Source: Escherichia phage REP4. Taken from it: a stretch of 64,000 bases of DNA. The stretch lies in sequence record OQ174503.1; one strand, 5' to 3'. The stretch's first letter is position 1. Each line of letters opens with the position of its first letter. The notes under the pieces were generated by a model that saw only the letters and a list, made by a program, of their open reading frames with translations, made no database searches and had not been told where the DNA came from. The position numbers and the translations under genes were made by a program. This document shows positions 27,837-28,652 of the stretch, piece by piece.

Positions 27837-28124
27837 TTACAAAAGATTTTTAGCAATAATCTTGAGATGTGCCGCAGAAATGTGTTTAGCTTTAAACAAC
27901 GCAGTTTCTTCAGCAGGAGAGATAATGATTGTAGCACCATCCTTTTTAGCAGACCACCCATCACCTAGGTAAACAGTACCTTTGATTTCTTCGCCATCAA
28001 CCAAACTAATCATTGGTTTACCTTCTCGTCCTTTATTTGCTTTAATAACTTCAGAAGTAAGAGTAGCTTCAGTAATAGTAGAAACCGGGGTAGTTGTAGA
28101 AGTAAATTCTTTGAAAGTTTTCAT
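27837..28124 (-). CDS. ipI: Internal protein I-like head cargo protein (95 aa) with capsid-targeting sequence; by position and sequence the T4 IPI (anti-restriction) homolog
   Basis: MKTFKEF... N-terminus, probable gp21 cleavage after ...ITE; located next to 57B as in T4. Confidence 0.75.
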   Translation of the reverse strand: MKTFKEFTSTTTPVSTITEATLTSEVIKANKGREGKPMISLVDGEEIKGTVYLGDGWSAKKDGATIIISPAEETALFKAKHISAAHLKIIAKNLL

Positions 28125-28154
28125 TTTATTTTCCTAATTAATTTTGATGAGATA

Positions 28155-28184
28155 ATAGTATCACTACCTCATCAACGTGTAAAC
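28155..28184 (-). promoter_or_regulatory. T4 early-type promoter upstream of ipI-like gene
   Basis: GTTTAC at 28184..28179, TGATACTAT; flanking sequence nearly identical to the promoter at 27788-27818. Confidence 0.5.
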
Positions 28185-28196
28185 AACTTTGTGAAA

Positions 28197-28652
28197 TTAT
28201 TTTAAATCGTCTGCCCAATCGAGTTTAAGAGGCTCTTTGTATTCACGATCTAATACGACCGGAATTTGTACATCACCGCTAAATGATAAGGGTCCAACAT
28301 TATAAGACAATGTTATATGCGGTGTGTAATCATCAAAATCATGTGTAGCACCTAGTGCCCGCGCATACATGTGTCTACAGCGCAGATATTCAGAATCTAG
28401 CACAAGTACAAGAGTCGATCCATCTTGTGTTTTCCATACTTCTAAATGTCCAGAAGAAGCTACTTCAAAACTTCCGCTTGATGGAACATACGGAACATTT
28501 ACTCTTGAATAACATATGGTCGAATGAATTTTTTCTCTAGGAACTGGATTAGGAACACGTAAAGAGCGCTGGAGTTCTTCCAGCGCATCAAGTGTTAATT
28601 CTGAAAACTTAGCTGCTACATAAAGACCCGTTGAAAAGTCTTTAAATTCCAT
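28197..28652 (-). CDS. 57B: gp57B, 2H-phosphoesterase (Acb1-type anti-CBASS cyclic-oligonucleotide phosphodiesterase)
   Basis: 151-aa protein with two H-x-T/S motifs (HSTICYS, HITLSYN); position between ipI and 57A as in T4. Confidence 0.8.

Follow-up and report, generated by a model that had tools for sequence, protein, structure and literature searches.

Neighboring T4 counter-defense genes ipI and acb1 (57B) in Escherichia phage REP4, where a conserved module meets a variable slot

Introduction

The closest described counterparts of the locus considered here are known from phage T4. The mature form of the T4 internal protein I, IPI* (also Ip1), is well known to inhibit GmrSD, a type IV restriction enzyme of E. 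coli CT596 (PMC4437046; PMC12373910), and published work has found about 360 copies of it to be packaged per head and to enter the host with the DNA. The inhibition is specific for GmrSD-CT596; other GmrSD subtypes are blocked by Ip2 and Ip3 (PMC12373910). The second gene, T4 57B, was identified as Acb1 by Hobbs et al., who traced the 3'3'-cGAMP-degrading activity of infected cells by activity-guided fractionation (PMC9117128). T4 Acb1 cleaves cGAMP and cA3 and blocks CBASS effectors both in vitro and in vivo; its catalytic tetrad is formed by H44/T46/H113/T115, an H44A/H113A mutant is inactive, and an acb1 deletion mutant of T4 has been made (PMC9117128). A third relevant system is the promoter-early stem-loop (PeSL) cassette, with the T4-type consensus TTTACW-N17-TAYWAT (PMC4122927). 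The stem-loops of these cassettes are described as lying across the -10 box and as agents of modular gene shuffling; promoter activity, terminator/attenuator activity and recombination have been shown only for the cassettes of RB49 and phi1 (PMC2839356).

Here, we compare with these systems a locus in a stretch of 64,000 nucleotides from Escherichia phage REP4 (OQ174503.1), hereafter the window, which a first-pass annotation had singled out as an adjacent pair of an IPI-like injected protein and an Acb1-type phosphodiesterase. Our analysis showed that this finding is correct and already known: these are two of T4's best-characterized counter-defense genes, present in a close relative of that phage. 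What is new is confined to a side observation on the nearby gene trna.3, a tandem duplicate of a widespread, uncharacterized domain with allele exchange in its N-terminal copy.

Gene content and organization of the locus

Between positions 26780 and 28900, the window is 100% identical to Escherichia phage vB_EcoM_G50 (NC_054917 / MK327942), a Tequatrovirus, and 95.8% identical to phage T4. The gene order is T4-like, and every gene at the locus lies on the minus strand. The two ORFs of the supposed pair were recovered where they had been placed, at 27837-28124 (95 aa) and 28197-28652 (151 aa) on the minus strand, the interval 27837-28652 given for the pair being their outer ends. Our own observations on these genes consist of identities, motifs, cassette repeats and distributions across phage records. 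From gene 1 towards the tRNA genes, the features are the following:

28894-29607, minus strand: gene 1, dNMP kinase
28652-28894, minus strand: 57A, tail-fiber assembly chaperone (Pfam GP57, E 2.6e-50; 97.5% identity to T4)
28197-28652, minus strand: 57B = acb1, predicted anti-CBASS 2H phosphodiesterase, 151 aa (Pfam Acb1, PDB 7T26, T4 identity)
28144-28197, minus strand: predicted early promoter and hairpin cassette before ipI (-35 TTTACA at 28183-28178; TG-extended -10 TACTAT at 28160-28155)
27837-28124, minus strand: ipI, internal protein I precursor, 95 aa (Pfam IPI_T4, PDB 2JUB, T4 identity)
28068-28124, minus strand: 19-aa propeptide within ipI
27840-28067, minus strand: mature IPI* (76 aa) within ipI
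27837-27839, minus strand: stop codon of ipI
27778-27831, minus strand: predicted second copy of the cassette, before trna.4 (-35 at 27817-27812; -10 at 27794-27789)
27575-27760, minus strand: trna.4, 61 aa, two hydrophobic segments (phrog_1692; 100% identity to T4)
27170-27574, minus strand: trna.3, 134 aa, two copies of a ~65-aa phage domain (PHROG 1411; 85% identity to T4)
26880-27167, minus strand: trna.2, conserved hypothetical protein of 95 aa (phrog_2023; 96.8% identity to T4)
25762-26782, minus strand: cluster of 11 tRNA genes, directly downstream of trna.2 (ARAGORN and Rfam)

The flanks of the locus show some features of their own. The dNMP kinase encoded by gene 1 has a four-residue deletion relative to T4 (DDEGKESVNF -> DDAVNF) and is 97% identical to it elsewhere. 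The tRNA set comprises Arg, His, Asn, Tyr, Met, Thr, Ser, Pro, Gly, Leu and Gln; tRNA-Ile and the homing endonuclease gene segB, both present in T4, are missing from it. Its Met, Tyr and Asn genes are common to the phage T2L region that is replaced in SegB homing, as described in the segB paper; the 'trna.2' of that paper is a T2L ORF that may differ from the trna.2 of the window. The 113-nt gap that separates tRNA-His from tRNA-Asn (25918-26030) gave neither a tRNA call nor an Rfam match at E <= 0.01. Minus-strand sites that match the T4 late-promoter core, TATAAATA, exactly include 29250-29257, which lies in gene 1 and upstream of 57A-57B-ipI, and 27121-27128, which lies within trna.2 and upstream of the tRNAs; across the window there are 20 such matches versus about 9.6 expected, all of them matches to the consensus only.

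The ipI gene and its product

The product of the shorter ORF, which the first-pass annotation had described as IPI-like with a capsid-targeting sequence, proved to be closer to T4 than that wording suggests. At 178.7 bits (E 2e-53; cutoff 25), it matches the Pfam IPI_T4 model (PF11634) over positions 1-76 of 76. Residues 20-95 are identical to the NMR chain of IPI* (PDB 2JUB) at 75 of 76 positions, the match beginning at A20, and the whole precursor is identical to T4 IpI at 94 of its 95 residues, with Ile67 here and Val67 in T4 as the sole change. The same Ile67-bearing IPI sequence was also found in other phages in a search of phage records, and the exchange is a conservative one. Given this degree of identity, we reject the description of the gene as only IPI-like: to judge from its product, it is T4 ipI itself. 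The N-terminal 19 residues, MKTFKEFTSTTTPVSTITE, are those of the T4 propeptide; they end in I-T-E, and the mature chain of 2JUB starts at the very next residue. At the level of the sequence, this confirms a capsid-targeting propeptide with a prohead-protease site of the L/I-x-E form.

By extension from T4, IPI would be made as a 95-aa precursor, with the N-terminal MKTFKEF... propeptide directing its entry into the prohead, where the prohead protease would cut after I-T-E19 to yield the 76-aa IPI*. The latter would then be injected along with the DNA and block GmrSD, the type IV restriction enzyme whose target is the glucosyl-hydroxymethylcytosine DNA that it cuts. Packaging, cleavage, injection and GmrSD inhibition are all known from experiments on T4; for the window IPI, we infer head packaging, injection and GmrSD inhibition from these by virtue of the near-identity of the two precursors.

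An N-terminus of the form MKT[YF][KQ]EF also occurs in two other ORFs of the window and in the ip genes of related phages. The two window ORFs in question (18767-19240 and 19257-19574, minus strand; 157 aa and 105 aa), which thus open with the capsid-targeting motif, occupy the place that the ipII/ipIII locus has in T4, yet they are not the T4 genes, T4 covering only 18% of the stretch. One of them belongs to the internal virion protein family phrog_3155, and the stretch partly matches a region of phage RB14 that is annotated as Ip4. The phage hence has T4's ipI alongside different partners.

The 57B (acb1) gene and its product

The 151-aa product of 57B gives a full-length match to Pfam Acb1 (PF23474), at 202.7 bits (E 2.6e-60; cutoff 27). 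It aligns end to end with the sequence of the phage FBB1 Acb1 crystal structures (PDB 7T26/7T27; E 4e-62) and is identical to T4 gp57B (NP_049750.1) at 151 of 151 aligned residues. The two H-x-T/S motifs and the Acb1-type assignment that had been proposed from the letters alone are both borne out: the catalytic motifs read directly from the DNA are H43-S-T45 (nt 28518-28526) and H112-I-T114 (nt 28311-28319), which constitute the HxT/HxT tetrad and correspond to T4 H44/T46/H113/T115 with the numbering reduced by one.

The protein would act as a metal-independent 2H phosphodiesterase. The experiments that define its nuclease activity were performed on T4, and we infer nuclease and anti-CBASS activity for the window 57B from those on the identical T4 protein. 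The cyclic-nucleotide cleavage assay that the first-pass annotation had suggested has in effect been done, on that same protein (PMC9117128); the phosphodiesterase activity, whose absence was named there as one ground for abandoning the idea, is on record for it.

In RefSeq, both the window 57B and T4 57B still bear the name 'RNA ligase', which goes back to PHROG phrog_755. The identity with Acb1 helps to correct this annotation.

Promoter and hairpin cassettes in the intergenic spacers

The 72 nt between ipI and 57B carry a predicted sigma-70-type early promoter together with a predicted hairpin, and a second copy of the same arrangement precedes trna.4. The two cassettes form a 54-nt direct repeat (D1) with 78% identity. 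Our promoter scan identified TTTACA, a 17-nt spacer, and TACTAT with an upstream TG. The hairpin predicted before ipI (-15.5 kcal/mol, z -3.3) spans the -10 box; its copy before trna.4 has a z of -2.9. These promoter and hairpin calls are matches to a consensus or to folding energies, and promoter-like sites in the region as a whole are as frequent as in shuffled sequence. The 18-nt core of the cassette occurs five times in the window against 0.11 expected occurrences.

A comparable arrangement was seen in related phages. In Shigella phage vb_GEC_SH_GT, the slot is occupied by two ip genes, both with MKTFKEF starts and each preceded by the same cassette, and phage RB69 likewise has two ip genes in the slot. 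The cassettes of the locus, with their repeated motif, fit the PeSL model as judged from these predicted elements. The ipI gene would be under its own early sigma-70-type cassette, in a slot where different ip genes are swapped between phages. The second cassette probably drives transcription of trna.4, trna.3 and trna.2, which would run towards the tRNA cluster.

The small genes trna.4, trna.3 and trna.2

The three small ORFs between ipI and the tRNA genes, reported in the first-pass annotation as unannotated, do exist (26880-27167, 27170-27574 and 27575-27760), but they are annotated as hypothetical CDSs in the records of both G50 and T4, under the names trna.2, trna.3 and trna.4. Their trna.4-trna.3-trna.2 order is kept across Tequatrovirus and Mosigvirus (RB69, p000v). 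The suggestion that one of them encodes a membrane protein is reasonable: the 61-aa Trna.4 has two strongly hydrophobic segments, with 19-residue Kyte-Doolittle means reaching 2.35. The gene was recovered in 790 phage records, 428 of which match at >=99% identity. The possibility that the three are conserved core genes with known roles did not materialize, no role being known for any of them. Searches with their products against Pfam returned only sub-threshold matches (DUF5092, E 0.051; DUF7554, E 0.064), those against PHROGs only families of 'unknown function', and those against NCBIfam no match at all, as was also the case for IPI and Acb1. We found no mention of T4 trna.3 or trna.4 in the papers searched. 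Trna.2 features there only through its T4 version (97% identical), which was enriched, together with a single other T4 protein, in a pull-down of the DRT1 reverse-transcriptase defense protein and was left uncharacterized by the authors (PMC13275509). A predicted structure of Trna.2, based on 16 close homologs, had a mean pLDDT of 50.8, too poor for a fold search.

The region had been described as hypervariable, which holds for the ip slot and trna.3 but not for trna.4 and trna.2. Among four Tequatrovirus genomes (G50, T4, FL33 and NBG2), trna.4 and trna.2 stay at or above 95% nucleotide identity. Identity falls abruptly at the start of trna.3, to 27-55% over the part coding for the N-terminal half of the protein (27574-27365), whereas the core of the C-terminal half is again at about 80%. 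A second dip, at 27304-27221 in the C-terminal part, sets G50 apart from T4, FL33 and NBG2. Hypervariability of the entire block 26880-27760 is thus rejected by the four-genome comparison, in which trna.3 alone varies. Of the 763 phage-record matches of trna.3, 473 are less than 60% identical.

In the protein alignment, the C-terminal half of Trna.3 is near-invariant and displays the motif FLLFAGDNYYPxGGYxDL...FDWWQIVNAxTHxIV. This C-terminal domain belongs to a family of 457 clusters (50% identity) at E <= 1e-3, whose members are mostly stand-alone proteins of 60-75 aa; in one case, a relative has an XRE-type helix-turn-helix domain as its fusion partner. The domain can be summarized by the motif FLLFAGDxYYPxGG...DWWQIVD. 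When the variable N-terminal halves were combined into a profile, this aligned to the C-domain family in hhalign with a probability of 95.3% (E 2e-8). We therefore interpret Trna.3 as a tandem duplicate of a ~65-aa phage domain, whose N-terminal copy has been replaced allele by allele, with sharp boundaries. As far as can be read from the alignments, conflict-driven exchange of a specificity domain could account for such a pattern. As a tentative and rather unlikely proposal, Trna.3 might be a modular host-interaction or counter-defense protein, in which the conserved C-terminal copy would serve as a scaffold and the duplicated N-terminal copy, swapped as discrete alleles among T-even genomes that otherwise hardly differ, would set the specificity for a variable host target. 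Were this true, the stand-alone homologs in those clusters would represent an uncharacterized class of small phage effectors.

Relationship between ipI and acb1, and alternative readings of the locus

The adjacency of ipI and 57B is real; their being a functional unit, which the description as a pair implied, is not upheld, the genes being independently organized. The start codon of 57B overlaps the stop codon of 57A (TAATG), so that 57B belongs with the gene 1-57A-57B module, and would be translationally coupled to 57A. Further, the phage records with a match numbered only 291 for ipI, compared to 763 for trna.3, 790 for trna.4, 803 for trna.2 and 1485 for 57B, pointing to a far wider conservation of 57B than of ipI. 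Neither gene organization nor phage-record distribution revealed any linkage of ipI and 57B as one unit. An operon-like pair is accordingly rejected on three counts: 57B is coupled to 57A, ipI has a predicted cassette of its own, and the distributions of the two genes are far apart. From this organization and these unequal distributions, it follows that the adjacency marks the border of a conserved module with a variable slot. We are thus left with little doubt that ipI and 57B are two independent, already characterized T4 counter-defense genes that happen to be neighbors where the conserved module meets the variable region, and nothing in the sequence of the locus contradicts this explanation.

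The 2H superfamily fold is common to Acb1 and the LigT-type enzymes, and a tRNA cluster lies about 1.4 kb from 57B, which, together with the 'RNA ligase' label in RefSeq and phrog_755, could suggest that the 57B product is primarily a LigT or 2',3'-cyclic phosphodiesterase-type enzyme of RNA repair acting on the neighboring tRNAs, with cyclic-oligonucleotide cleavage as a side activity. We consider this highly improbable. The top curated match of 57B is Pfam Acb1 rather than any ligase family, and no NCBIfam ligase model was matched. T4 gp57B was purified as the cGAMP-degrading activity itself, and CBASS effectors are blocked by it both in vivo and in vitro (PMC9117128). A different alternative would accept both counter-defense roles and extend them to a coordinated anti-defense island, in which ipI, acb1, trna.4, trna.3 and trna.2 are functionally linked, with one or more of the small proteins acting as an additional inhibitor of host defenses. 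Two proven counter-defense genes do adjoin here, followed by small ORFs with a predicted early promoter; the divergence of trna.3 is abrupt and allele-like, as is typical of host-virus conflict genes; and the DRT1 pull-down enriched only two T4 proteins, Trna.2 among them (PMC13275509). However, 57B, coupled to 57A and present in 1485 records, does not travel with ipI and its 291, and trna.4 and trna.2 are near-invariant within Tequatrovirus, unlike typical arms-race genes. Moreover, no family, structure or paper gives trna.2-4 a function, and the Trna.2 enrichment was left without follow-up by the authors of the DRT1 study (PMC13275509). On balance, such an island is unlikely, and two independent T4 genes at a module border remain our preferred explanation.

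Implications

In practical terms, the phage can be expected to share with T4 both its GmrSD inhibitor and its CBASS-signal nuclease, which aids the prediction of its host range. The gene trna.3 may matter more, as the one allele-swapped gene in an otherwise frozen block. Given its tie to a large family of small phage proteins without known function, it is a concrete candidate for involvement in conflict between phage and host.

Comparison with known systems

Compared to T4 IpI, the window protein shares the length of 95 aa, the identical propeptide, the slot between 57B and trna.4, and the predicted early promoter cassette; it differs by the conservative replacement of Val67 by Ile67. With T4 Acb1, the window 57B product shares all 151 residues, the HxT/HxT tetrad and the lid region at the C-terminus among them. 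The difference lies in the annotated extra N-terminal Met of T4, which is absent here because the TAA stop codon of 57A overlaps the ATG (TAATG), whereas T4 has a 4-nt ATGA overlap. The similarity extends beyond T4 to the Acb1 of Erwinia phage FBB1, with whose crystal-structure sequence (PDB 7T26/7T27) the window protein aligns end to end.

The intergenic cassettes resemble the PeSL elements of Arbiol et al. 2010 and Comeau et al. 2014 in being a repeated intergenic TTTACA-N17-TACTAT with a predicted hairpin on the -10 box, and in flanking swapped genes. They differ in that only two copies are present at the window locus, where they are known from sequence matches. Finally, the small genes stand in the same order as T4 trna.2, trna.3 and trna.4 (PHROGs 2023, 1411 and 1692), with amino-acid identities of 97%, 85% and 100%, respectively. 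Within this otherwise T4-like series, trna.3 has the G50-type allele in the C-terminal patch at 27221-27304, with just 55% nucleotide identity to T4.
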